54,010 nucleotides of DNA, taken from contig JBAXKN010000001.1 of NCBI GenBank assembly GCA_037135295.1, forward strand, positions 1 to 54,010, in the 5' to 3' direction. Of this stretch, positions 7,684 to 53,185 are shown piece by piece (the first letter of the stretch is position 1; each line of letters opens with the position of its first letter). A model generated the notes under the pieces. The model did no database searches. It was not told the origin of the DNA and worked only from the letters and a program-made list of their open reading frames with translations. The stretch comes from Candidatus Saccharimonadota bacterium (lineage in GTDB: Bacteria; Patescibacteriota; Saccharimonadia; Saccharimonadales; Saccharimonadaceae). Made by a program: the position numbers and the translations under genes.

Positions 7684-8271
7684 ATGTTCTATAATAAAAA
7701 TATGACAGTTTTTGAAGGATACAAACAAAAGAAAAGTGTTATTGTTGTATATACAGGTGAGGGTAAAGGAAAAACAAGTGCTGGTCTGGGTTTAATGGTT
7801 CGTGCGTTGGGAACTGGTTGGAAGGTAGCATTTATCCAATTCATTAAGTCTTGGGATGTGGGTGAACATAAATTCATAAACGAAATCATGCCAATATATA
7901 AAGATAAACTTTCCTTTGACAAAGGGGGACTAGGTTTTTATAAGGCTGGTGAGTTAAGTTCCGATGCTTCGGAACAAGAACATAAATCTGAAGCCAGACG
8001 TACTTATGATTTTGCGTATGAATCTGCAACCTCTGGTGAATACGAATTAGTCATATGTGATGAAATAAACAACTCTGTTTATGATGGTTTACTATCAATT
8101 AAAGATCTAGAAAATTTGATTAGTAATAAACACCCAAAAACAAATCTATGTCTTACTGGTCGTAATTTTCCAATATCATTAATTGACAAGGTCGACATTG
8201 TCACTCAGATGACAAAATTAAAACATCATTTTGATGATAAAATATTAGCGAATGAAGGAATTGACTACTAG
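7684..8271 (+). CDS. cobO: cob(I)alamin (corrinoid) adenosyltransferase, CobA/CobO/BtuR family
   Basis: P-loop region VYTGEGKGKTSAGLGLMVRALGTGWKVAFIQFIK and a later CDEIN segment are typical of the family. The start may be the internal ATG (MTVFEG). Confidence 0.8.
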   Translation: MFYNKNMTVFEGYKQKKSVIVVYTGEGKGKTSAGLGLMVRALGTGWKVAFIQFIKSWDVGEHKFINEIMPIYKDKLSFDKGGLGFYKAGELSSDASEQEHKSEARRTYDFAYESATSGEYELVICDEINNSVYDGLLSIKDLENLISNKHPKTNLCLTGRNFPISLIDKVDIVTQMTKLKHHFDDKILANEGIDY

Positions 8272-8811
8272 TTTTCTTACAATAGCTCGATTTTTTACTA
8301 GCTGAAATGCTGTTAACGCCGCAGGTACTAAAATCAAGTTTCCGATTAGCATAGTTCTATAAAATGGTACAGCCATTACGAAACAGTCAATCAGACCTGT
8401 GATAGTTGCTGGATACCAACCCTGCAACCATACCCCAAAGTTCGTAATTACAAAGAATGTGAATGAACTAACAACTGCAAATCCGAAAGAGTACAAAATT
8501 TGTGATTTTGGTTTTTTATTAAATCTTCGTAGAAAAGTTGCACCTAAGCCAATAATTGCGAATGCCCCCCAGGTGAACATGAATATTGATGAGTTTCCGA
8601 TAAGAACATCAGAAATCACCATCGATGTTACTGGAACTATCAAGGCTGCTCGCCATCCTACTGAAATCGCAGCTATCACACTAACGGCCGTTATAATTTC
8701 AAGGTTGGGGGCAACCTGATATTTATTATTAATGATTCTCCATCCAACTGCTAAAACCACCAAGCATATTGTTAACGAGATATTTTTTATCATCATATTT
8801 TTTTTAGTCAT
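8245..8811 (-). CDS. polytopic membrane protein, DUF6580-like (putative vitamin/corrinoid uptake component)
   Basis: 5-6 TM helices. The motif pattern PNLEIITAVSV ... TNFGVWL..WYP.T..GL..CF..A.PFYR resembles my recollection of the DUF6580 family. The functional call is inference from context. Confidence 0.5.
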   Translation of the reverse strand: MTKKNMMIKNISLTICLVVLAVGWRIINNKYQVAPNLEIITAVSVIAAISVGWRAALIVPVTSMVISDVLIGNSSIFMFTWGAFAIIGLGATFLRRFNKKPKSQILYSFGFAVVSSFTFFVITNFGVWLQGWYPATITGLIDCFVMAVPFYRTMLIGNLILVPAALTAFQLVKNRAIVRKLVVNSFIR

Positions 8812-35995: not shown

Positions 35996-36708
35996 GCGGA
36001 ATGCAAACGGAACCTTATCAAAATTTCGCTAGGGAAAAGTTAGGTTTTGAATTTAATGACCTGCAGCTGCTTATTACAGCTTTAACTCATCGAAGTTATG
36101 TAAACGAGCATAAAAAAAGTGTCAGCGAACACAACGAGCGCCTTGAGTTTTTAGGTGACGCTGTACTTGAGTTAGCAGTAACTGATTATTTGTATAGAAA
36201 ATATTCCGAACAAGAAGGTATATTAACTAGTTGGCGAGCAGCGTTAGTCAGAACAGAGAGTATCGGAGAAGCTGGCGTTTTATTGGGCTACGAACCTCTC
36301 GTTAGAATGAGTAAGGGCGAAAAACAAGGTAGTGATCGTGCTAGGCAACAAATTCTTGCTAATGCCTTCGAAGCAGTGACAGGTGCAATATATCTTGAAC
36401 GTGGCTATGAAGATGCAGCAGCTTTTATATATAAAAACATCATTAGTAAATTGGATGGTATCTTGGAATCAGGAACTTGGCGGGATGCAAAATCAAATCT
36501 TCAAGAAGTGTCACAGCGCATCGACAACCAAACTCCTCAATATCGTGTAATCGAAGAGATAGGTCCAGACCATGACAAGATATTCACACTAGGTGTTTAT
36601 GTCGGTAGCCAGTTGATGGGTAAAGGTAGTGGTCCAAGCAAACAGGTGGCTCAGCAACAAGCTGCACAAGCTGCATTGGATGAATATTCAAGACGTCAGT
36701 CTAATTGA
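35992..36708 (+). CDS. rnc: ribonuclease III
   Basis: Signature ERLEFLGDAVLE plus a C-terminal dsRBD. ATGA overlap with the preceding stop. Confidence 0.93.
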   Translation: MSGMQTEPYQNFAREKLGFEFNDLQLLITALTHRSYVNEHKKSVSEHNERLEFLGDAVLELAVTDYLYRKYSEQEGILTSWRAALVRTESIGEAGVLLGYEPLVRMSKGEKQGSDRARQQILANAFEAVTGAIYLERGYEDAAAFIYKNIISKLDGILESGTWRDAKSNLQEVSQRIDNQTPQYRVIEEIGPDHDKIFTLGVYVGSQLMGKGSGPSKQVAQQQAAQAALDEYSRRQSN

Positions 36709-40433: not shown

Positions 40434-40508
40434 TGGGGTGTCGCCAAGTGGTAAGGCACCGGCTTTTGGTGCCGGCATTCGGGGGTTCGAATCCCTCCAC
40501 CCCAGCCA
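40434..40508 (+). tRNA. tRNA-Gln(UUG)
   Basis: Acceptor TGGGGTG/CACCCCA (U1-A72), D arm GCC/GGC, anticodon arm CCGGC/TTTTGGT/GCCGG, T arm GGGGG/TTCGAAT/CCCTC, discriminator G, encoded CCA. 75 nt. Confidence 0.93.
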
Positions 40509-40979: not shown

Positions 40980-41618
40980 ATGAAAAAACAAATATACAAG
41001 TCAGGTTTTGCCCCAATTATTATAATAGTAGTCATAGTCGGTATGGTCGTAGTTGGAGTTTCAGGGTATTTATTTTATAAAAATTTTGTACAGAAAAAGT
41101 CTAATAACTCAATAGCCGGAACTAGCGCAAAACAAAAGTCAGATAATAATGTATACTCAGATAATAATTTAAGTTTTGAATATCCTAAAACAGGGTGGTC
41201 AACCACCACTAATACAAGAGATGATCCTTCTGGCTATGGTTTTAAGTACCACTCCGTATATTTACGTAGTGACGATTTCAAGGAGAGTGGTGATGGTAAT
41301 CCAGGTTCTTCAGCGAATATACTAGAGGGCACACAAATTTCTATTGTAAAGAATGGGCCAAACCCAGCTGGGGATAATGGTCCGAGAATCGATACAGAGG
41401 TTAAGTCTGCTGCCGACAGAGACTACTATACTGACGTTAACACTATAATGGTTGATGGATATAAAGCCTATAGTTACATCGATCAGTTTGGGTCACCTGT
41501 TACTAGATTTGCAAAAACTAATTACGAATATGGGATAGCAATTTTTCGTTCAGACAAAAAATACGACATGTATATGGCAGTCTATGATTTAATCAGGTCT
41601 ACCCTGAAGGTAAAATAG
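40980..41618 (+). CDS. hypothetical membrane-anchored/secreted protein
   Basis: 212-aa ORF with an N-terminal TM helix (FAPIIIIVVIVGMVVVGVSGYLF). Confidence 0.6.
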   Translation: MKKQIYKSGFAPIIIIVVIVGMVVVGVSGYLFYKNFVQKKSNNSIAGTSAKQKSDNNVYSDNNLSFEYPKTGWSTTTNTRDDPSGYGFKYHSVYLRSDDFKESGDGNPGSSANILEGTQISIVKNGPNPAGDNGPRIDTEVKSAADRDYYTDVNTIMVDGYKAYSYIDQFGSPVTRFAKTNYEYGIAIFRSDKKYDMYMAVYDLIRSTLKVK

Positions 41619-41948: not shown

Positions 41949-42014
41949 ATAATTTGATTTTTGATGGGTATAATAAACGGCTTAGACCGACTTACCCAGC
42001 CAAGATTAACACCA

Positions 42015-42046
42015 AAGGTGACCCGAATGGGTCATCTTTAGTTTTT
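42015..42046 (+). terminator. intrinsic terminator
   Basis: AAGGTGACCC/GGGTCATCTT stem (one G-U) followed by a T-run. Confidence 0.7.
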
Positions 42047-42171
42047 ATTAGTATATCGAGATTCACAAAAATACTGTTATCTGATACAGTTCGTCTGTTT
42101 ATTTTAAAATGTTAAAATTATAAAAAAGATATAATCAATTCGAATTTATATGGGCATGCTATAATATATTT

Positions 42172-42867
42172 ATGGGCGCCGGCTATACAGTTTTTTCATT
42201 TGGTCCTGTTATATTCTTTTTAATTTGTGCCATCTCTTCGGTTGCTTGGCTCACCTTGGCGATGAGCATTGCAATTAAGGGAATCGTAATTGTACCAGAG
42301 AAGAAATCTACTTTTATTAAGCTGTTTTACGTGGCAGCTATCTTTGCTGCTATCTTCTTTTTTGCAGTGGTAAAGTACGAGTGGCTTGGTGGCACTACTT
42401 CTTATGACGGTTTATATCATTCAACGGGTTTTATAGGTAGTATTATAATTGGCATAGTCGCGATTAGTATTAGAGATAATAATAAATTAAGGTCTTTTGG
42501 CGTAGGGTTACTGCCATTTTTCGTGGCAATTGGGTTTTTAATTGTTAATGCAACATTCACATCTGGCGCTTCTGGGGATTTAAATTCCTTATCGTACGTT
42601 ATTGGTTTCTTTTTTGCATCAATTCAGGTTATATACCCGTTGGCCTACTACTTTTACATTAAACAGCCTAGTAATATGCAAGCTGCTATTGATAAACGAA
42701 ATGCAAAAATAGACAAAAAAAATGCTAAAATGGGCATCGCAAACTCAAATCAAATGCCATCTGCATCTACACAACCTACCTATATGCCTCCAACGCAAAC
42801 TGCCGCAACACCACAAACTCAGTCAGAGCCTCTGAATGCCACGCAAGATACTACTAACAGGCAGTAG
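42172..42867 (+). CDS. polytopic membrane protein with a Q/T/P-rich C-terminal tail
   Basis: About 6 TM helices. First gene of the plus-strand half of the lipid locus. Confidence 0.65.
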   Translation: MGAGYTVFSFGPVIFFLICAISSVAWLTLAMSIAIKGIVIVPEKKSTFIKLFYVAAIFAAIFFFAVVKYEWLGGTTSYDGLYHSTGFIGSIIIGIVAISIRDNNKLRSFGVGLLPFFVAIGFLIVNATFTSGASGDLNSLSYVIGFFFASIQVIYPLAYYFYIKQPSNMQAAIDKRNAKIDKKNAKMGIANSNQMPSASTQPTYMPPTQTAATPQTQSEPLNATQDTTNRQ

Positions 42868-45004
42868 ACATTTTGTTGCATTAAAAGAAGCCCGAATACT
42901 TCATGATTCGGGTTGTGAAGTATATACGGCGGATAGTGTAAATTTTGACTATACGATGTATTCTAATGCAGTCAAAAAGCATTTTCTCGTTCCATCTGTA
43001 CGTTTTGAGGAAACGAAGTATATTGAAAAACTTTGTGAAATCATAATAGAGTACAAAATAGATGAGGTTGTAGCTCTTGGTGAGGAAACATTTTACCTAT
43101 CGAATAATATACAAAAGATTCGACAGTCATGTTCCGATGTCTGCATAAAACTAGATAGTCTTGATAAACTTTCCACATTACATAATAAATGGCTCTTTTA
43201 TAAGCTTTCCATGTCTTTAAAATTTACTGTACCGAAAACCGCACTCGTAAAATCACCAAGTGAAATTGCTAAGTTGCAACAGTGGTCATCACAACATAGC
43301 GTGATAAAGCCAATATATTCTCGATTTGGCTATGAGGTAAAAGAACTTTATGATATCAACATGACTGTGCTTGAGAGTCTCGATTGGGACGACGAGGATG
43401 GGTATATCATTCAAGAATATATCAAAGGTGAAGACATATCTTCTTTTTCAATGTCAAGCGATGGGAGTGACATCATCACGTATAAAAGTGCACTAACGAC
43501 TAGTGCACCGGGGGCAATGGCAGCTGCAATAAGGGTAGAAACACCGCAACAAGTGCGTGATATTGATATAAAAATACGTAAAGCGCTTAACTATTCTGGC
43601 CAACTGGGTTTAGATTTTCTATTAACGCCTGATGGTGAAATAGTTCTTCTGGAAGCAAACCCGCGAGCAACAATCGGACGAGTATTAATGCGACAACCAA
43701 AGATTCAATTTAGAATCATGATGCTACATCAGTTTTTAAATGGTTTAATACCGTTACGCGCGTGGCTAAAATATTTTTGGGTAATGACTTGGTATCCTGA
43801 TATGGTATGGAGTTGGAGAGATATTCGTCCGGCTTTTATGAGTCAAATTATGTGCAAGGGTCTTGGAACATATCTGCGTTTTTTGTCACGTCATTCTGGA
43901 GTTAGTTTTCAGGCATACAGCACCTATGACATGGAATATAATGGCGATAAAGTTATAATTTCCAAAGTTGAAAACCCTACAAAAAATGATGATAAAACCA
44001 TATTAAGTTTGTTGGAAGGCCTATCAAGAAAAGGTATGTTCTATTTAATTTATACTCGTCGTCCATCGCCACTACTATCATTTAAACATGAGCAAGCAAA
44101 TATCGGTGTGATAAAAGATAGTCGACAGGATATAAAATACATGTGCGCCTGCTCACATGACGAATACTATATTAACGGAAAATCTTGTGGGTTGGGGTAT
44201 TTGAGCGCAGTCCGGAAAAATCCAACTTTTCAAGGATTTATTGACTGGAGAATGCCATTTTTTAATTATTTTAGCGAAAGAAACTATTTTTTTTCAGTTA
44301 TGAAAAGTAACTCCCGTGCCATTCAAGCATTTACAAGACCCCACGAGTCACTCGTGCTATCAAGTCTGGTTGCAGACTATAATATTATGATCATCAACGC
44401 TCGTCGGATTGCTGTGCCACATCATAGTAAATGTATATTCAAAAATACAGTCGGCATTAATCGGGCAGAGTTGTTGGAATTTATTAATAGGGAAGGACGC
44501 AAATATAATTTCTTTCCGGTCGTGAACGAATATCTGCTTCAGCGCCTCGACATAACGGACAAAAACAGTTTTGTGCTATTGCGTGACGGTAACATAGTTG
44601 GTTTTGCTGGACTTGTAGATCAGAGAAAATGGAAGCAATTCATCATTGTTCGCTATGCGTGGATATTGCGTTTTATTCGAATCCCATTTAATTTGTTTGC
44701 TAGACGCTTAAGTTATATCTCTATTCCAAAACAAGACAAAACAGTTATATGTCCAACGGCGACTATTTTTGTGGTTTCCGAAAACGATCAGAATCTGTAC
44801 AAGGAGTTGTTATATGGTCTTTCTTGTGAAGCTAGAAAGAAAGCTGATATATTCACGTTGGCCGTAACAACAAAAAGCCCACTCTACAGATCGCTCCAGA
44901 CAAGATATAACTTTGCGATTGAAAATAATCTATATATTCAGGAGATAAACGGGCTTGCGGTTGACGGTAAGCAAGTATATGTAGATGCCCTTATGCTATA
45001 CTAG
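42836..45004 (+). CDS. 722-aa fusion: ATP-grasp ligase N-terminal half plus a large C-terminal domain of GNAT/Fem-like character
   Basis: Pre-ATP-grasp ILLTGSRHFVALKEARILHDSGCEVYTADS. ATP-grasp core KW..YKL...VPKT..V....E......VIKP..SRFG, IIQEYIKGEDIS, GLDFLLTPDGEIVLLEANPR. The C-terminal 340 aa have no motif I can name. The GNAT/Fem-like idea is inference. Confidence 0.7.
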   Translation: MPRKILLTGSRHFVALKEARILHDSGCEVYTADSVNFDYTMYSNAVKKHFLVPSVRFEETKYIEKLCEIIIEYKIDEVVALGEETFYLSNNIQKIRQSCSDVCIKLDSLDKLSTLHNKWLFYKLSMSLKFTVPKTALVKSPSEIAKLQQWSSQHSVIKPIYSRFGYEVKELYDINMTVLESLDWDDEDGYIIQEYIKGEDISSFSMSSDGSDIITYKSALTTSAPGAMAAAIRVETPQQVRDIDIKIRKALNYSGQLGLDFLLTPDGEIVLLEANPRATIGRVLMRQPKIQFRIMMLHQFLNGLIPLRAWLKYFWVMTWYPDMVWSWRDIRPAFMSQIMCKGLGTYLRFLSRHSGVSFQAYSTYDMEYNGDKVIISKVENPTKNDDKTILSLLEGLSRKGMFYLIYTRRPSPLLSFKHEQANIGVIKDSRQDIKYMCACSHDEYYINGKSCGLGYLSAVRKNPTFQGFIDWRMPFFNYFSERNYFFSVMKSNSRAIQAFTRPHESLVLSSLVADYNIMIINARRIAVPHHSKCIFKNTVGINRAELLEFINREGRKYNFFPVVNEYLLQRLDITDKNSFVLLRDGNIVGFAGLVDQRKWKQFIIVRYAWILRFIRIPFNLFARRLSYISIPKQDKTVICPTATIFVVSENDQNLYKELLYGLSCEARKKADIFTLAVTTKSPLYRSLQTRYNFAIENNLYIQEINGLAVDGKQVYVDALMLY

Positions 45005-45009
45005 GCATT

Positions 45010-45690
45010 ATGAAATATCTAATTAGTTTACTTAGTGACAAAGTTAACCCATGGGTGTTTGGGTTCTTCGCAATAGGGGCGCTTCTACTACTATTAATAT
45101 CAAGTTATTACTTGTGGCATAAAAAAAATAAAACTTTTCGATTATTCGGTGTTGGACTTGTACTAACTGGACTAGCTTTTACATGTTGGTCGTATGTAAC
45201 AGGCTTTCATCCAGAGAACATCGGGTTATATACAAACATAGGCGTGCTGCTTTTTCTAGGGGCATTGATTTCGTTCTTCCTTTCATATACAAGTACTATT
45301 AAGCGCAAGAAAGCGCGCATAGCATATTGGGCTGTTGGAACAGTCGCACTAGTGGCATTTATAACACTCCGATTCGTGCTACATAAGTCTAATCCTGGAT
45401 TTTCAGAAGACGGCTTTTTTTCTTTCAATATAGACCAATTGGTTGTTTATGCTTATGTTGTTCTGATTGCATTTTCTATGGTACCAGCTGCATATGGAGT
45501 TGCGGCTATAACAAAGAGCGCTCTTTTAGCGGGCGTGACACGGTTTGGTTTTTCGTTAATTACTATCGGTACTGCTATTCTAATCACTAGCCCCGATAAC
45601 TACATGCAAATCATTAATGGTACGGGCATGGTGGTTGGTATTGTTATGATCGCTGCAACACATATTTTTGTGCCGCTGGAATCTAAATAG
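45010..45690 (+). CDS. hypothetical 7-TM membrane protein
   Basis: 226-aa hydrophobic ORF starting 5 nt after the previous stop. Confidence 0.65.
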   Translation: MKYLISLLSDKVNPWVFGFFAIGALLLLLISSYYLWHKKNKTFRLFGVGLVLTGLAFTCWSYVTGFHPENIGLYTNIGVLLFLGALISFFLSYTSTIKRKKARIAYWAVGTVALVAFITLRFVLHKSNPGFSEDGFFSFNIDQLVVYAYVVLIAFSMVPAAYGVAAITKSALLAGVTRFGFSLITIGTAILITSPDNYMQIINGTGMVVGIVMIAATHIFVPLESK

Positions 45691-45692
45691 AA

Positions 45693-46244
45693 TTGTTTGC
45701 TCTTCAGACCTTAACGCTTATTTTACCAGTTTCGGTGTCTGGTGTTATGCTGATTATCTGTCTAAAAACGGGTGCCTTTTCATCGTGGGACATACCAGTA
45801 GATCACGGTATTTTATTTAAGGGTAAATCACTATTCGGTCGAAACAAAACCTACCGTGGTGTGATTATATATATAGTTGGATCTTTGGCTACTACAGTAT
45901 TGCTATGGTCATTACGTCTGAATGGTGAGATGTGGGTTCACTGGGTCTTTGCATATAACCCAATTGTACTGGGTTGCCTTTTTGGTCTTTCATACTCACT
46001 GGGCGAATTGATCAATAGCTTTATTAAACGTCGCCTTGGTATTAAACCGGGAGGTGTAAATTCACATTTTACCGAAATTCAATATTTTTTTGATCTTGTG
46101 GATGGACCGGTTGTAGTAACTATAGTTTTGATTGTTATTTATGGCTTTAGTTGGCAATCTTTGGCGGCCCTGTTTTTTGGGGTTTTAATCCACTGGTTTG
46201 CCGAGTTTGCCATGTATAAGTTAAATCTTAAAAAGAAGCATTAA
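45693..46244 (+). CDS. CDP-archaeol synthase (CarS, DUF46) family CTP-transferase-like membrane protein
   Basis: 183 aa, 5 TM helices. Motifs KGKSLFGRNKTYRG, GELINSFIKRRLGIKPG and a C-terminal YKLNLKK resemble the conserved G(D)GKTWRG / SFIKRR / LNLK blocks I recall for archaeal CarS. Confidence 0.65.
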   Translation: MFALQTLTLILPVSVSGVMLIICLKTGAFSSWDIPVDHGILFKGKSLFGRNKTYRGVIIYIVGSLATTVLLWSLRLNGEMWVHWVFAYNPIVLGCLFGLSYSLGELINSFIKRRLGIKPGGVNSHFTEIQYFFDLVDGPVVVTIVLIVIYGFSWQSLAALFFGVLIHWFAEFAMYKLNLKKKH

Positions 46245-46832
46245 GGCTGTAGCCGCTAGAGGCACAGTAAGGTTATCACTCCCAAAAGGCGAGAAACGTT
46301 CTACTACAGTAACCCCAAGGGCAACTCCCATGGCCATTAATAGCGGTGAGTTTGTACATAAAATTATTACTACACTTGCAATGGCAAAGAAAACAAGTGA
46401 GCCTGCTATCGTCTTCTTGTTTTTATTTAGTAAATATACCGTTAAACCTGCGCCACTATCGGCAAGAGTTAAAATTAAAATACTGGCAACATAAATATAG
46501 GGCGTATGAGACACAAGTACGAGGGGTGCGAGTATACCAATTGGAAGGAACACTTCTCCGTATGTTGGCCGTTTAACGCCATTTATAGATGAGAGTAGTT
46601 TTTTCCGAAATGAGATTGCGATAAACAAAGCCAGAATTGATACAATAAATACATATAACCAGATGGGACCTTCAATAAATCCCAAAGTAGCTACTATACC
46701 TAGTGTTATATGTACAAGTTTACGCGTTATTTCGGGAGAGACACGAAATTTACGACTGGTATACTCGATTACAGTAACGATGACAATTGGTAAAAGTATA
46801 AGTATTGCCGAAATAATAGGACGTCTAATCAT
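46221..46832 (-). CDS. polyprenol (dolichol/phytol) kinase-like protein, CTP-transferase 1 family
   Basis: ITRKLVHITLG and ADSGAGLTVYLLNKNKKTIAGSLVFF patterns are as in SEC59/VTE5-type kinases. I moved the start to ATG 46832 (MIRRP), which forms an ATGA overlap with the upstream GNAT stop. Confidence 0.6.
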   Translation of the reverse strand: MIRRPIISAILILLPIVIVTVIEYTSRKFRVSPEITRKLVHITLGIVATLGFIEGPIWLYVFIVSILALFIAISFRKKLLSSINGVKRPTYGEVFLPIGILAPLVLVSHTPYIYVASILILTLADSGAGLTVYLLNKNKKTIAGSLVFFAIASVVIILCTNSPLLMAMGVALGVTVVERFSPFGSDNLTVPLAATALMLLFKI

Positions 46833-47305
46833 TTTTTCGCCAATCTGACTATATAGATTGCTTGTCGTTTTGCTAAATGACTGGCAACTCGTAGGCATGA
46901 ATGGACGCGTTTTGTAATAAATTTACCTCGGCTTAGTGACGTAATTTCTAAAAGTGAGGATTTATGATAGCCATGGTTGTTACAGAAATGATTGATAATA
47001 TATGGGGAATATGAAGCCACAACGTAAGTCTGGTTTTTTAGAGTCAATTCATCAATAAGTCGAGAAAAAATTCCTTGACGTCGATAGGATGGGTGAATAT
47101 ATGCGCCACCTATTTCGTAAACATTACTACATAAATGCTCAGAGATTAGCCAACCAACAATCTTGTTTTCATCTCGGGCAATGGCGATCTTGTTCGATTT
47201 TAGTGAAGCTTTTGATCGAGGAGTTAGTTCGTCAGTTTCATTAAGTAAGCGAATGATTTCATCTAGGTCTTTTGCGGTGGGATCAGTAGTGACGGTTATA
47301 GCCAT
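46829..47305 (-). CDS. GNAT family acyltransferase
   Basis: Acetyl-CoA-binding motif YRRQGIFSRLIDEL. 158 aa. Confidence 0.75.
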   Translation of the reverse strand: MAITVTTDPTAKDLDEIIRLLNETDELTPRSKASLKSNKIAIARDENKIVGWLISEHLCSNVYEIGGAYIHPSYRRQGIFSRLIDELTLKNQTYVVASYSPYIINHFCNNHGYHKSSLLEITSLSRGKFITKRVHSCLRVASHLAKRQAIYIVRLAKK

Positions 47306-47898
47306 ATGAATCCAATGATGCCAATTATTATCGCTACTGGTGCCCAGAATAATAAGGCGCCTGACTTTCGAGTTTTTATATTAGACAATTGGAGAAGAGC
47401 AAATATTGAAATACAACCGGCAACAAGTAATTGTGGTAGTTGTACTACATGTACAATAATTAAAAATATAAATGTAATTAGTGATAAGTGGCAAGTAATT
47501 AAACCTCGGTAGTAAGTGATGCCTTTTTTCTTTATGTAGCCTTCTTGGTTAAATCCTGCAAGTCGAATTATGCCAGTGGCAATTACAATAAAGCCTACGA
47601 TTGCGCCGAGTGTTCCTGGTAAAATTTCTTTCCAAATGACTAATGCTGAAAGTAGAGAGTAGTTGAATGAATCGACTATACTGTCGAGCTGACGACCGAA
47701 TTCGCTAATAAGATTTAGTTTACGCGCAACGAAACCATCAAGACTATCGAGTAAAAATGCTCCAACCGCCATAACTACACTGGCTTTAAGATTGTTCGAG
47801 AGTAATAGTAAAATTGCTATCCATGAAAAAAGCAGGCTCATCAATGTAATGGCGCCAGGTATATGTAGTTTATTTATTATCTGTTTTGCGTTTTTCAA
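47296..47898 (-). CDS. CDP-alcohol phosphatidyltransferase (phosphatidylserine/archaetidylserine synthase-like)
   Basis: Complete family signature DSLDGFVARKLNLISEFGRQLDSIVD (D-x2-DG-x2-AR-x8-G-x3-D-x3-D) plus about 6 TM helices. Confidence 0.85.
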   Translation of the reverse strand: MKNAKQIINKLHIPGAITLMSLLFSWIAILLLLSNNLKASVVMAVGAFLLDSLDGFVARKLNLISEFGRQLDSIVDSFNYSLLSALVIWKEILPGTLGAIVGFIVIATGIIRLAGFNQEGYIKKKGITYYRGLITCHLSLITFIFLIIVHVVQLPQLLVAGCISIFALLQLSNIKTRKSGALLFWAPVAIIIGIIGFIWL

Positions 47899-50185
47899 GT
47901 ATTATTTCTCCTGATAACCCGTCCATTATAACAAAATCACCATTTTTGTAACGGGTTGTTGAGTCTTGAGCGCCAACTATAGCCGGAATACCAAGCTCGC
48001 GAGCGACGATGGCAACATGTGATAGGGCGTTACCACGTTCTGTTATTACACCCACAGCTTGCGTAAATAGTAGTGTCCAACCCGGATCAATGTGAGTAAC
48101 AACTAAAATTTTACCCGATATATCTAGGTGCGGGTTAAAAGTCGTTGCAACAACAATATATCCGGATACTTTTCCGTTTGAAACACCTGTTCCGAGTTGA
48201 AGTTTACCAGACGGCTTTTTTTCATTAACTAAGTGGATTGGAGCGATTTTGCCCCGCCCTGAAACAAGCAACGACATAGTGCAAGATTCATACTCTTTTA
48301 TTTTATTTTTTCGACTAGTTACTAAATATTTGGCGTTGTAGTCCAATGTGTGACCATTGATAATCTCTTCAATTTCTCGTTCGTATAGATAGTAAATGTC
48401 ACGTGGGGTATCGATAATACCTTCGTCGGAAAACCTCTTGCCAATAACCAAATAGGCATCGCTTGCCATGCGGAATACTTGAGCCCTGTTAAATCTAAAA
48501 CTTTCGCGCCAGTCGATAGCTTGGCGTGTATTTTTTGCAAGGTAGTGTATCAACAGTCCGTGGGTAGAGATTTGCGTTCCGCTATTAGGTGGTGAATTGT
48601 AGTTTGAACCGTTGGAATGGCTAGCGAGTATCATGATGTCTTCTATATTTTCTGTAATAGGAACACTCTCAAGTTTAAGTTCGTCTGGAGTTCTAGCGGA
48701 ATATTTCTTGGTGTACGCCATTGTTTTATCAATACACTCCTGCCATGACTCAGTATTCTTTAATAAATCAATCGTAGTCACATTCTGTTTTTTTATTTGA
48801 GAATTTATAAAGTCTCCGAGTTCTTGAAGCGCTTGAAGTGGTTTAATACTCGCTCGTTTTGTTAAACCTTGTAATACCTGTAAGTACTCTTCGTGACTAT
48901 ATCGCTTGAGAAGTTGTTTTTTTAGCATACCGTGAAATACCATAGTACGAAAGTCATTAAGCACTGGCATAGCCCATAATTCAAGCAAACTACTCTTCGT
49001 TTGTTGGATATTGTAGAAAATAGTGTTGGCATTCACGTTATCAGGTATAGCCTGATGAAGAGCACCGTACCGTTGTGAAAATAGGCGAGTGAACTTTCGA
49101 GAAATTCTAGGAGAATTGAGTATTACCCATATAAACCTGGCTATCGCCATAGTAGATCTTACATCCATTCGTGTAGTGTTCTTTAAAGCACCACGCTTTT
49201 TAACTGGATTTAACATAGATTCAAAATAGACCTGGTTATGTCGACCTGGGATCAACTCGACCAGCTTGTACCAGTTTGAAATACGATAATACACATGACC
49301 ATTTAGATATCCCAGCATATTTTCAAACACGTCTGATTTTGCGTTTAAGATATTTTTATTTATACCGATTATTTGCAAAAACTCTGGGTATACTTGTGCA
49401 TATATCGAACGAATAAATGAATAAGTTAGAGGTAATGTCGTACCTGGGTAGTTTTCTGAAATATTAGTACTATCCCAAACTAGATCATAATCAAGATTTG
49501 TTGTAGTTTGAGGCCGCATTTGCAAGTACACAAGGCTTTTGCCGTCATATGACCACTCAATATCAAGTGGCATATTAAGTGTCTGTTCTAGTCTACTTAC
49601 TTCATTAGCGAGTTTCCGCATGTGGCTAGGTGCTACGCTATTGGCGATGCTAATTTTTGGAACCAAATATTGCTTAGCAGACTCATTCTCTACAACGGCG
49701 TTCTTCCATGAGTCGGTGTAGACAATGTGCATATTACCATTACCGTCTTCACTAAAAATAACGCCACTCTGTTTTCCATAAAACATCTCTTGAACGATCA
49801 ACGAACCACCAGCTTTTAGCTCTAAACCATGTTTACACGCATATTGTCTTACGCCTTCGCTGAATGTACTTTTATAACAATCAATAATGTATTTTTTCAG
49901 TGCTGTTTTTGAATATGTGATGTCGACAAATGACTTGTATTGACCAGCAAATGAAGAGCGCTCACCGTCTTCTTGAAGCGCCGATGTCCGAAAACTTACC
50001 TTGCCCCAACCTTTTTTTTCAAGCTCGAGGTGTACCTTGTCTATAGCTGCATTATTAAGGGTTATTATGTCCGTCTTGCGATTTTTTTCAATGGCTTCAT
50101 CGAACGGTATAATTAAAAAATCTGGTACCGAAAGCTGGAACTCGTCTCTCAATCGAATCAAATTATTCGCTTTGTTGCCTATCAT
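47870..50185 (-). CDS. three-domain PEP-utilising-enzyme-family dikinase (rifampin-phosphotransferase-like architecture)
   Basis: N-terminal PPDK_N/ATP-grasp motifs (GNKANNL, SFRTSALQEDGERSSFAGQYKSF, LIVQEMF..QSGVIFS). An unassignable central region of about 430 aa. C-terminal swivel His domain ERGNALSHVAIVARELGIPAIVG. I moved the start to ATG 50185 (MIGNKANNL), which overlaps the UbiA stop as ATGA. Confidence 0.8.
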   Translation of the reverse strand: MIGNKANNLIRLRDEFQLSVPDFLIIPFDEAIEKNRKTDIITLNNAAIDKVHLELEKKGWGKVSFRTSALQEDGERSSFAGQYKSFVDITYSKTALKKYIIDCYKSTFSEGVRQYACKHGLELKAGGSLIVQEMFYGKQSGVIFSEDGNGNMHIVYTDSWKNAVVENESAKQYLVPKISIANSVAPSHMRKLANEVSRLEQTLNMPLDIEWSYDGKSLVYLQMRPQTTTNLDYDLVWDSTNISENYPGTTLPLTYSFIRSIYAQVYPEFLQIIGINKNILNAKSDVFENMLGYLNGHVYYRISNWYKLVELIPGRHNQVYFESMLNPVKKRGALKNTTRMDVRSTMAIARFIWVILNSPRISRKFTRLFSQRYGALHQAIPDNVNANTIFYNIQQTKSSLLELWAMPVLNDFRTMVFHGMLKKQLLKRYSHEEYLQVLQGLTKRASIKPLQALQELGDFINSQIKKQNVTTIDLLKNTESWQECIDKTMAYTKKYSARTPDELKLESVPITENIEDIMILASHSNGSNYNSPPNSGTQISTHGLLIHYLAKNTRQAIDWRESFRFNRAQVFRMASDAYLVIGKRFSDEGIIDTPRDIYYLYEREIEEIINGHTLDYNAKYLVTSRKNKIKEYESCTMSLLVSGRGKIAPIHLVNEKKPSGKLQLGTGVSNGKVSGYIVVATTFNPHLDISGKILVVTHIDPGWTLLFTQAVGVITERGNALSHVAIVARELGIPAIVGAQDSTTRYKNGDFVIMDGLSGEIILEKRKTDNK

Positions 50186-51006
50186 ATAAACAACAATAAC
50201 CCTTGGATTGCCAGTGATATGCCAAACGCTGCTTGTATCAACTCGAATTTTCCAGAATAAGTAAATAATACCGAAATCAGAGCTAATATTAAATGCCAAA
50301 TATTACCAGTTATAACAGATAGAAAAATACCGATAAATGACACCATTGTTATAAGTAGTACAGTTGTAAAAGGCGCACCCCATACGGCAGGGTAGGAATC
50401 TTTAACGATCTTACCATGTGTATTATGACGATATTCTAGTTTTCGAATAATTTCGAATACAGACATTGTCATTACGAATGCCAGACCGCCGAGTAGCGCC
50501 CTAAGGTTTAGCTGTACGCCAAAAGTTATAAAACCCCACATAGCAAACACGACAAATATCATCTGATGAGTAATAAAATATATAGTAAAGTGTTTATTCA
50601 GCCATGATGATATAAAAAATTCTTTTGCTGTCAACGCAGAGTATACTAGCACCGGTATGTAAAATATGACTGCTTTAGGGTTGATAATATACAATGAGCC
50701 GAGTTCAATAATAAGTGAGATTACTCCAATGCCAATTAATTGCCGTGAGCTGATTGCTCCGCGTTGAAAAGGACGGTTGGGGTAGTTTTTAGAGTCATGA
50801 TCTATATCTTTGAACTCATCAGTTACTCGAAGTCGTAGTAGGAATGCCGCAAATGATAAAGCTACTAGCCCTATGATTACGAAACTAGTCGCAGTACCAG
50901 TAAGATGACTACATACACCCATAATCATCAAGCTGTAGCTAAGCGACAGTAATAAGACAAGTTGGACTGGAAAACGTTCTTTAAAGTACAGGATGATTGA
51001 ATTCAT
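50182..51006 (-). CDS. UbiA-superfamily prenyltransferase (divergent)
   Basis: First Asp-rich motif TDEFKDIDHD followed by NRPFQRG. 8-9 TM helices. The second Asp-rich motif is poorly conserved. Confidence 0.7.
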   Translation of the reverse strand: MNSIILYFKERFPVQLVLLLSLSYSLMIMGVCSHLTGTATSFVIIGLVALSFAAFLLRLRVTDEFKDIDHDSKNYPNRPFQRGAISSRQLIGIGVISLIIELGSLYIINPKAVIFYIPVLVYSALTAKEFFISSWLNKHFTIYFITHQMIFVVFAMWGFITFGVQLNLRALLGGLAFVMTMSVFEIIRKLEYRHNTHGKIVKDSYPAVWGAPFTTVLLITMVSFIGIFLSVITGNIWHLILALISVLFTYSGKFELIQAAFGISLAIQGLLLFI

Positions 51007-52756: not shown

Positions 52757-53185
52757 ATGACAGTTAATAAACAAAATTTGAATAAAAAGCAGGAACTATT
52801 CCGTAATATGTTTGTAGGGATTTTACTTTATTCTGTTGTACTTGGTTTTTTTAATGACTATACTAAAATTTTGCACACAGGCACGTACTCTATAACTTTC
52901 TTGATGGCGATAGTTATGCAGATTCTGACGTACTTAACATACTTGGTAAAAGACAAATTTGTGGACTGGTTTAATAATCGCAAGGAGCCAAAAAGCAAGC
53001 TGTTGTTAGTGTTTGGTGTTTGGTTGGTAGTTTTCTTGTCGAAGTTTGTATTTTTATGGGTTATAGATTTAGTATTTCGTGGTACGGTTGAAATTAGCGG
53101 TTTCTTGGGATTATTGCTCATGATTGTAATATTGACCATCATTCAGAAACTAGCCGAGATTGCATATTCCAAGCTCGGGAACTAG
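52757..53185 (+). CDS. hypothetical 4-TM membrane protein
   Basis: 142-aa hydrophobic ORF. Confidence 0.6.
   Translation: MTVNKQNLNKKQELFRNMFVGILLYSVVLGFFNDYTKILHTGTYSITFLMAIVMQILTYLTYLVKDKFVDWFNNRKEPKSKLLLVFGVWLVVFLSKFVFLWVIDLVFRGTVEISGFLGLLLMIVILTIIQKLAEIAYSKLGN

Follow-up and report, generated by a model that had tools for sequence, protein, structure and literature searches.

A CarS-like gene and a polyprenol-kinase-like gene with conserved overlapping 3' ends in a rare candidate lipid cassette of Saccharibacteria and actinobacteria

The CdsA superfamily includes prenol kinases that depend on cytidine triphosphate (CTP), namely SEC59/dolichol kinase, the phytol kinase VTE5 and FOLK (COG0170), and in the prenol salvage route of plants VTE5 and VTE6 act in succession ahead of a UbiA-type prenyltransferase. 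Convergent overlapping units are known in the form of "excludon"-type loci, overlapping 3' untranslated regions processed by RNase III, and bidirectional terminators. Saccharibacteria, like other ultrasmall bacteria, are commonly described as relying on their hosts for membrane lipids. The synthase of cytidine diphosphate (CDP)-archaeol, CarS, is represented by the Aeropyrum pernix enzyme (ApCarS; PDB: 5GUF; Pfam: PF01864; reviewed in PMC9385802), and the phospholipid recycling of bacteria and eukaryotes runs from diacylglycerol kinase through CDP-diacylglycerol synthase (CdsA/CDS) to a phosphatidyltransferase (PMC7018664). Here we analyze a stretch of 54,010 nucleotides (nt), hereafter the window (positions 1 to 54,010 of contig JBAXKN010000001.1, assembly GCA_037135295.1), from the genome of a Candidatus Saccharimonadota bacterium, hereafter G000 (796 kb in 78 contigs, 97.5% complete), in which a putative CTP:lipid-phosphate cytidylyltransferase gene related to CarS converges on, and overlaps with, a gene for a divergent relative of the COG0170 kinases.

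We favor, with moderate confidence, the reading that the products of these two genes act one after the other, each with CTP, in a rare accessory pathway for membrane lipids, and that their overlap is an ancestral junction of a gene cassette, produced by compaction and maintained by inheritance. Our survey of the literature found no description of the cassette, of the junction, or of CarS in Saccharibacteria or other bacteria of the candidate phyla radiation (CPR). Neither CdsA nor PlsC was found in G000, yet it carries a complete-looking module for phosphorylating a lipid, activating it with CTP and adding a head group, whose components are a divergent CarS-type enzyme and a trimmed relative of the polyprenol kinases. 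The analysis contributes a division of the CarS-family genes into two types with their frequencies, a link to Micrococcales and Agreia, the coexistence of the cassette with CdsA, a variant with PlsC fusions, the in-register conserved junction, and a genome-wide control in which the overlap by itself proves ordinary.

The two convergent genes and their products

The plus-strand gene (45693-46244) begins with TTG and encodes a putative cytidylyltransferase of 183 amino acids (aa), which belongs to a divergent bacterial subfamily of PF01864 here termed type B. The minus-strand gene (46221-46832) encodes a kinase-like membrane protein of 203 aa, a divergent relative of the COG0170 polyprenol and diacylglycerol kinases whose nearest homologs are likewise 203 aa long. 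Both the listing of open reading frames (ORFs) and direct reading of the sequence agree with an earlier note on this DNA, which had described two convergent ORFs sharing 24 nt (46221-46244, both strands); the overlap is in exact antiparallel codon register. The two TAA stops lie inside it, each being a TTA leucine codon on the opposite strand, and the CarS-like tail LNLKKKH with its stop is encoded opposite the tail LMLLFKI with its stop. As both tails fall within the conserved length of their families, the overlap did not arise through the recent disappearance of a stop codon. The TTG of the CarS-like gene lies 2 nt past the stop of the preceding membrane-protein gene; a gene caller starts instead at an ATG at 45747, giving a product of 165 aa. 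We prefer the TTG because the alignment with homologs of 178-186 aa takes in the first 18 residues and because residues 2-26 are modeled by AlphaFold as a confident first transmembrane helix. At the other end of the pair, the ATG of the kinase-like gene and the stop of the upstream GNAT gene share 4 nt.

The CarS-like protein matches PF01864 over model positions 6-172 of 175 with 46.1 bits against a cut-off of 22 (E = 7e-12), a result with which a whole-genome search agrees, and it matches the sequence of 5GUF in phmmer with E = 3e-6. Its AlphaFold2 model (pLDDT 93.1) contains five long helices, and the sole PDB match recovered by Foldseek at E ≤ 0.001 is again 5GUF (E = 3.8e-4, probability 1.00, TM-scores 0.55/0.63). 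The polar motifs of the family are kept, with PxDxG present as PVDHG, GxNKTxRG as FGRNKTYRG, GE..NSFIKRR as GELINSFIKRRLG and FD..DG as FDLVDG, together with the histidine of the last helix. Residues G49, K52, G94, S109, K112, R113, D134, D137 and H167 are invariant in 26 CarS-like sequences, and it is from such conservation that roles are ascribed to them. The family score, the match to 5GUF in both sequence and fold, and the catalytic motifs together uphold the assignment of the plus-strand gene to the CarS family.

Within the family, the protein does not group with archaeal CarS, the comparison that the earlier note had proposed. It scores 55.9 bits on the NCBIfam equivalog model for CarS (NF003114), whose cut-off is 148, and its Agreia ortholog scores 49.3, as against 132.4 for a type-A example from Saccharibacteria. 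In an IQ-TREE phylogeny, whose only archaeal sequence is one fragment, ApCarS, the metagenomic CarS sequences P0011 and P0012 and the type-A genes are split with support 100/96 from a separate type-B clade that includes the window protein. Compared to the archaeal-like type, there is also an insertion of 5-7 residues ahead of the DxxD motif.

The kinase-like protein is connected to its family through annotated relatives. Among 5.8 billion sequences searched with phmmer these include P0021, annotated as COG0170 (3.1e-34), P0026, a "dolichol kinase" (9.5e-29), and P0037, of the "diacylglycerol/polyprenol kinase family" (1.2e-5), and PF01148 is matched by 5 of the 26 aligned members of the family (best 7.2e-9). 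Invariant positions in the family are R37 and H41 of an RKxxH motif, R88, G92, D125, G144, E178, G184, D186, N187, L188 and P191. The AlphaFold2 model has a pLDDT of 90.4, and alignment of the kinase-like and CarS-like profiles in hhalign gives a weak match (probability 12%). The label "SEC59/VTE5-like" used in the earlier note stands in the sense of remote, transitive homology, given the annotated relatives and the members with PF01148 matches, but not as a direct Pfam match; judged by sequence comparison, the enzymatic activity of the protein is uncertain.

A CarS-family gene in a bacterium had been taken to be unusual in itself. In the order to which G000 belongs this is not so: 177 of 301 sampled genomes (146 of the 247 of high quality) contain a match to PF01864, making CarS-family genes the rule and not the exception. 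Nearly all of them are archaeal-like genes, here termed type A, which score 85-132 bits on PF01864. Since canonical CdsA was detected in only 2 of 40 relatives, the CarS-family gene is the normal CTP-transferase of the order, and type-A CarS looks like its standard route to CDP-activated lipids. Examples of type A are provided by L012-L021 and L024 (genomes G019, G026 and G030-G039), with L018 (1489-3339) and L020 showing a row of CDP-alcohol transferase, PHP phosphoesterase and type-A CarS; a type-A gene 3' of these two partners is seen in several genomes. The taxonomic family of the window is an exception, as CarS-family genes occur in none of its 12 other genera and in 3 of 24 genus mates. 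With the type-B profile, G000 alone among the 301 genomes scores high (304 bits); the remainder reach at most 86 bits, through their type-A genes.

This distribution bears on an alternative in which the CarS-like protein would be a housekeeping CDP-diacylglycerol synthase that replaces CdsA, with the kinase-like protein a diacylglycerol kinase recycling diacylglycerol scavenged from the host. Such a role would fit the content of G000, in which no canonical CdsA was found, the sole match to PF01148 or PF01864 being the CarS-like gene of the window, and in which PlsC was also not found, while two further strong CDP-alcohol transferases are present. It would also fit the fusion of other members of the clade to PlsC, which makes phosphatidate, and a type-A CarS gene that stands, in one genus mate, beside a DAGK_cat kinase. 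We nevertheless consider it improbable, given that genus mates at least 96% complete (G002, G005, G010 and G023) encode 2-3 such CDP-alcohol phosphatidyltransferases (~100-118 bits) while having neither CdsA nor any gene of the CarS family, that the type-B gene is present in just one of the 301 genomes of the order and always within the cassette, and that the actinobacterial carriers described below retain a normal CdsA. A more limited proposal, that the CarS-like gene supplies the two other CDP-alcohol transferases of G000, was rejected on the first of these grounds. G000 additionally encodes a polyprenyl synthase and UppS, which provide a hint as to the substrate.

The cassette and its phyletic distribution

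The conserved unit consists of the CarS-like gene converging on a row made up of genes for the kinase-like protein, a GNAT protein, a CDP-alcohol transferase, a dikinase and a UbiA-family protein. Contigs of Saccharibacteria type carry it, as does a genus mate of G000. Among species representatives, its carriers are one Candidatus Saccharibacteria metagenome-assembled genome (MAG), many MAGs assigned to Rhodoluna or to other Micrococcales and Actinomycetota, three genomes of Agreia, and one MAG labeled as a gammaproteobacterium. The Agreia carriers include A. pratensis VKM Ac-2510 and Agreia sp. Leaf283, and a culture-collection strain is the source of at least one of the three genomes. The MAG labeled as a gammaproteobacterium (L040, genome G333), deposited as "uncultured Gammaproteobacteria", is 1.1 Mb long, with 37% G+C, and has no canonical CdsA; in size and content it looks like a CPR genome, and its label may be wrong. 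On the whole, the cassette is rare, occurring in 3 of 251 Microbacteriaceae genomes and in 2 of 31 genomes of the genus to which G000 belongs, one of the two being G000 itself. Both Agreia and Rhodoluna carriers also hold canonical CdsA (182 bits). Because the actinobacterial carriers keep this normal enzyme, the cassette represents an accessory pathway and the CarS-like enzyme is not simply a substitute for CdsA.

The surroundings of the unit differ between lineages. In the Saccharibacteria-type loci the CarS-like gene is the last of a plus-strand operon that also encodes a protein with seven transmembrane segments and usually an ATP-grasp fusion of ~720 aa. The genes 5' of the CarS-like gene in actinobacteria are unrelated and variable (alpha/beta hydrolase, NMT1, DoxX, transhydrogenase), the Agreia cassette adjoins the rpoA/ribosomal cluster, and in two Micrococcales loci (L042, L048) a homolog of the seven-transmembrane protein lies on the opposite strand, after UbiA. 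The sole constant of the cassette is the head-on orientation of its CarS-like and kinase-like genes.

In the phylogenetic tree the Saccharibacteria-type sequences form a clade of seven members that includes the window protein (100/95), the Rhodoluna/Micrococcales sequences (95/95) and the Agreia sequences (100/99) form two others, and all are united in a single clade (100/99). The tree does not resolve the order of the subclades within the cassette clade; transfer between Saccharibacteria and actinobacteria, in one direction or the other, is likely to have taken place. Exchange between Saccharibacteria and Micrococcales is plausible because cultured Saccharibacteria are documented to have members of the latter, namely Leucobacter, as their hosts (PMC9894109).

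In a wider search among 1.84 billion cluster representatives, the type-B profile recovered 1888 at E ≤ 1e-3, of which 881 reach ≤ 1e-10 and 54 reach ≤ 1e-30. Several of the recovered CarS-like proteins are fused to PlsC (P0072, P0073, P0078, P0081, P0104, P0157), the PlsC domain being C-terminal in the fusion of L059 (982-2145), and one, P0076, is fused to a fatty-acyl reductase (NAD_binding_4); such domain architectures point to acyl-bearing substrates for the type-B clade. On the L059 contig a kinase-like gene (32% identity, E = 3e-18) converges on the PlsC fusion and is followed by a gene of unknown family and then by genes for a CDP-alcohol transferase, a dikinase, a ferritin-like protein and UbiA. 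A distant type-B gene in a Bacteriovoracaceae MAG (L006/L007, 4533-12556) belongs to a different lipid cluster, without a kinase-like partner, in which the neighbors are an HMG-CoA-reductase/APH fusion, a dikinase resembling rifampin phosphotransferase (RPH), a methyltransferase, PlsC, a thioesterase and fatty-acid desaturases.

In the window, the minus-strand row continues beyond the kinase-like gene with a GNAT acetyl/acyl-transferase (46829-47305; Acetyltransf_7, Acetyltransf_1), a CDP-alcohol phosphatidyltransferase (47296-47898; PF01066, E = 4.9e-16) resembling PssA and archaetidylserine synthase, a dikinase similar to RPH and phosphoenolpyruvate (PEP) synthase (47870-50299; PPDK_N and PEP-utilizers), and a UbiA-family prenyltransferase (50182-51006; PF01040, E = 9.8e-12), with which the conserved part of the minus-strand operon begins. 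The nearest models for the CDP-alcohol transferase, PssA (TIGR00473, 62.8 bits) and archaetidylserine synthase, are both matched below their cut-offs. The plus-strand operon opens with a membrane protein that belongs to no family (42172-42867), upstream of which lie a terminator-like site (42014-42039) and promoter-like sites (42062-42110), and continues with the ATP-grasp fusion of 722 aa (42836-45004), seen only in Saccharibacteria-type loci, and the seven-transmembrane protein of unassigned family (45010-45690), 2 nt ahead of the CarS-like gene. This lipid locus stands just 3' of a tRNA-Gln gene (40434-40508). The small genes that flank it, at 40980-41615 and 52757-53182, are themselves infrequent among its genus mates (8 of 30 and 2 of 30 genomes, respectively), indicating that the region around the locus is variable. 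The flanks contain no integrase that could be found, and no empty site could be defined for comparison, as the flanking genes themselves vary within the genus.

The composition of the cassette also bears on the notion of a true CDP-archaeol synthase, according to which the cassette would make diether lipids of the archaeal type by converting digeranylgeranylglyceryl phosphate (DGGGP) to CDP-archaeol and then to archaetidylserine. Membership in PF01864, the 5GUF fold, and the presence of both UbiA and an archaetidylserine-synthase-like transferase in the same cassette are what such a pathway would lead one to expect. A range of observations makes it very improbable: the score on the equivalog model lies far below the cut-off, the other Saccharibacteria type scoring 132; the protein is phylogenetically split from ApCarS and the archaeal-like clade; geranylgeranylglyceryl phosphate (GGGP) synthase (PF01884) was not found in G000, glycerol-1-phosphate dehydrogenase not having been searched for; UbiA matches the DGGGP synthase models weakly, at 22 bits; and the PlsC and acyl-reductase fusions suggest acyl chemistry.

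The tail-to-tail junction

In every related locus with enough sequence, the CarS-like and kinase-like genes lie tail to tail, and beyond the window the same overlapping junction recurs in 19 loci, which come from contigs of Saccharibacteria type and from MAGs of Micrococcales and other Actinomycetota. When 23 loci, the window included, were tabulated by the exact positions of their stops, the length of the overlap was a multiple of three in 20, all of low or medium GC: 9, 12, 15, 18, 21, 24 or 33 nt. It is 24 nt in the window, in L003 and in L038 of a genus mate (G012), 15 nt in L001 and L002, 9 nt in L004, L008 and the PlsC-fusion locus L059, and 12, 15, 18, 21 or 33 nt in 12 Micrococcales and other Actinomycetota MAGs and the MAG labeled Gammaproteobacteria. 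The rule is broken only by the three Agreia genomes (65-67% G+C), in which there is one overlap of 14 nt and two gaps, of 22 and 26 nt.

The two tails are complementary in kind, that of the CarS-like protein being basic and lysine-rich (L-K-x-K) and that of the kinase-like protein rich in leucine and phenylalanine (L-L-L-F/L), as in the pair LSLKKKQS and ALALLLF. In most loci the stop of the kinase-like gene is the complement of a conserved leucine codon in the C-terminal "LK" motif of the CarS family. As the lysine-rich, cytoplasmic tail of the CarS-like protein and the end of the last helix of the kinase-like protein use complementary codons in the same register, the junction appears to have been inherited fixed in that register. 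The loci are related and hence not independent, so the 20 in-register overlaps do not amount to 20 independent events; on these sequence comparisons, the simplest reading is a single ancestral junction whose stops have since shifted by whole codons. Convergent coding overlaps that persist across phyla are rare, and the in-register junction, being one of them, can serve as a synteny marker for the cassette.

The earlier note had held that the overlap leaves no room for terminators, and had seen in it a possible reciprocal regulatory arrangement. A consensus scan bears out the first of these statements. No terminator-like hairpin is detected at the junction or close to it; the first candidates met downstream are ~0.9 kb away on the plus strand and ~2 kb away on the minus strand, and the scan shows no excess of terminator-like sites in the region overall. 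Rho was not found in G000 at its 97.5% completeness. Because neither a terminator-like site nor Rho was found, transcripts from either side are expected to run into the partner gene, and probably do so. Read-through antisense RNA across the junction is therefore physically likely, and antisense regulation at the junction is possible.

The genomic background, however, doesn't single out the overlap as a sign of special regulation. By a crude ORF-based gene call, 24 of the 95 convergent pairs in G000 overlap (~25%), 10 do so by at least 24 nt, and in 57 (~60%) the stops are no more than 20 nt apart. The window itself holds another such pair, in which the genes at 7684-8271 (plus strand) and 8245-8811 (minus strand) share 27 nt. 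Of the 301 genomes of the order, 232 have housekeeping relatives of the kinase-like gene, and these relatives usually face an unrelated P-type ATPase gene, which they overlap in no fixed register (overlaps of 4, 11, 11, 18 and 20 nt among the five loci L027, L029, L030, L032 and L036). The overlap of the CarS-like and kinase-like genes is unexceptional within G000, although across genomes it is more than chance, and convergent pairs in these genomes are normally spaced too closely for a terminator. Tail-to-tail overlaps alone are no evidence for regulation in compact genomes.

It is against this background that the regulatory proposal has to be weighed. It holds that the overlap is a selected device, in which antisense RNA over the last gene of the partner operon ties the CTP-activating enzyme and the rest of the pathway to each other, by interference or by RNase III cleavage of the duplex, so that their expression is mutually dependent or mutually exclusive. 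The distance to the nearest terminator-like sites and the failure to find Rho are compatible with it, as is the presence of an RNase III gene in the window (36034-36681). The overlap has been kept across two phyla, and in every cassette examined the CarS-like gene lies on the opposite strand despite variable upstream genes and strand changes of other cassette genes; this fixed orientation is the best argument for a function of the junction. The commonness of overlapping and closely spaced convergent pairs in G000 nonetheless counts against it, as do the similar overlaps between housekeeping kinase-like genes and the P-type ATPase gene. Two of the three Agreia cassettes have lost the overlap while the cassette was kept. 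Moreover, no conserved or unusual RNA structure was found at the junction: both strands of the window junction fold no more stably than shuffled sequences (z about 0), and the same holds for the Agreia intergenic gaps. Finally, the persistence of the pair is also explained by the fact that an overlap of this kind cannot be broken without damage to two proteins. On the whole, we regard selection of the overlap as a regulatory device as unlikely, and prefer to view it as an ancestral junction retained through compaction and inheritance.

A candidate pathway and its relation to known systems

Under the accessory-pathway reading favored here, the kinase-like protein, as a trimmed relative of the CTP-dependent polyprenol and diacylglycerol kinases, would most likely phosphorylate a lipid alcohol, and the CarS-like enzyme would most likely combine the resulting type of lipid phosphate (phosphatidate-like, and possibly bearing prenyl or acyl groups) with CTP to give a CDP-activated lipid. 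The neighboring CDP-alcohol phosphatidyltransferase might then attach a head group. UbiA and the dikinase could supply or modify a prenyl part, while GNAT, or PlsC in the fused versions, may add an acyl or acetyl group. The substrates and the order of these steps are suggested by family membership and gene context.

Several observations weigh against this scheme. In the CarS-like protein, a glutamate (E105) replaces the aspartate of the GD..SFxKRR motif, a leucine replaces the glutamine of FDQxD (giving FDLVD, with D134 and D137; leucine or threonine occurs at this position among type B), and the PAGxAN motif of the first transmembrane helix is lost; owing to these changes, it may act on a substrate unlike those known so far. 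The case for a kinase is open to similar objections. The minus-strand protein has no match of its own in Pfam or NCBIfam, PF01148 being absent even at E ≤ 10, and it has no PDB match, either by fold (Foldseek, E ≤ 0.001) or in a profile search of PDB sequences. The cassette subgroup to which it belongs lacks a stretch of 11 residues present in distant, canonical-looking members (P0030-P0038), and the glutamate of the "EGS" motif in their K(S/T)xEGS segment is replaced; with both of these lost, it may not be a kinase. As regards the junction, selection on expression could also explain the common register of the overlaps.

A bolder combination of these ideas would make the junction a selected device that couples the CTP-activating enzyme to an undescribed pathway for a prenyl/acyl hybrid phospholipid, exchanged between epibiotic Saccharibacteria and their Micrococcales hosts. 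We consider it a doubtful proposition; if it were true, the culturable Agreia carriers would make both the hybrid lipid and the regulation at the junction testable. The accessory pathway as such is in any case open to knock-out and lipidomics in an ordinary laboratory organism, because the module is present in Agreia and in freshwater actinobacteria of the Rhodoluna type.

When compared with ApCarS, the window protein shares the five-transmembrane fold, the PxDxG, G.NKT.RG, SFxKRR, DxxD and histidine motifs, a length of ~180 aa, and a CDP-alcohol transferase as neighbor. It differs in being only ~22% identical and far under the equivalog cut-off, in the Asp to Glu and Gln to Leu replacements, the insertion of 5-7 residues before DxxD and the loss of PAGxAN, in belonging to a bacterial clade that stands apart and includes fusions to PlsC and to an acyl reductase, and in being encoded by a genome in which GGGP synthase was not found.

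The kinase-like protein resembles SEC59, VTE5 and FOLK in the N-terminal RKxxH...G, the (A/S)D..A.G and the C-terminal E....GSDNLTVP signatures, in its multiple transmembrane segments, and in its co-occurrence with UbiA, and departs from them in having no direct Pfam match, in the 11-residue deletion, and in the loss of the K(S/T)xEGS glutamate. Relative to the VTE5/VTE6 salvage route, the second phosphorylating enzyme would here be an RPH-like dikinase and not a VTE6-type protein. Like excludon-type loci, the junction involves convergent genes whose unterminated transcripts must overlap, in the presence of RNase III; in contrast to them, it is the coding regions that overlap, a terminator is undetected, and the layout is common throughout the genome. 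The closest parallel in terms of logic is the succession of diacylglycerol kinase, CDP-diacylglycerol synthase and phosphatidyltransferase, which similarly leads from a lipid alcohol through a lipid phosphate and a CDP-lipid to a lipid with a head group. The cassette would follow this course with enzymes of the CarS and COG0170 types in place of DgkA or DgkB and CdsA, as an accessory unit that coexists with CdsA in actinobacteria.

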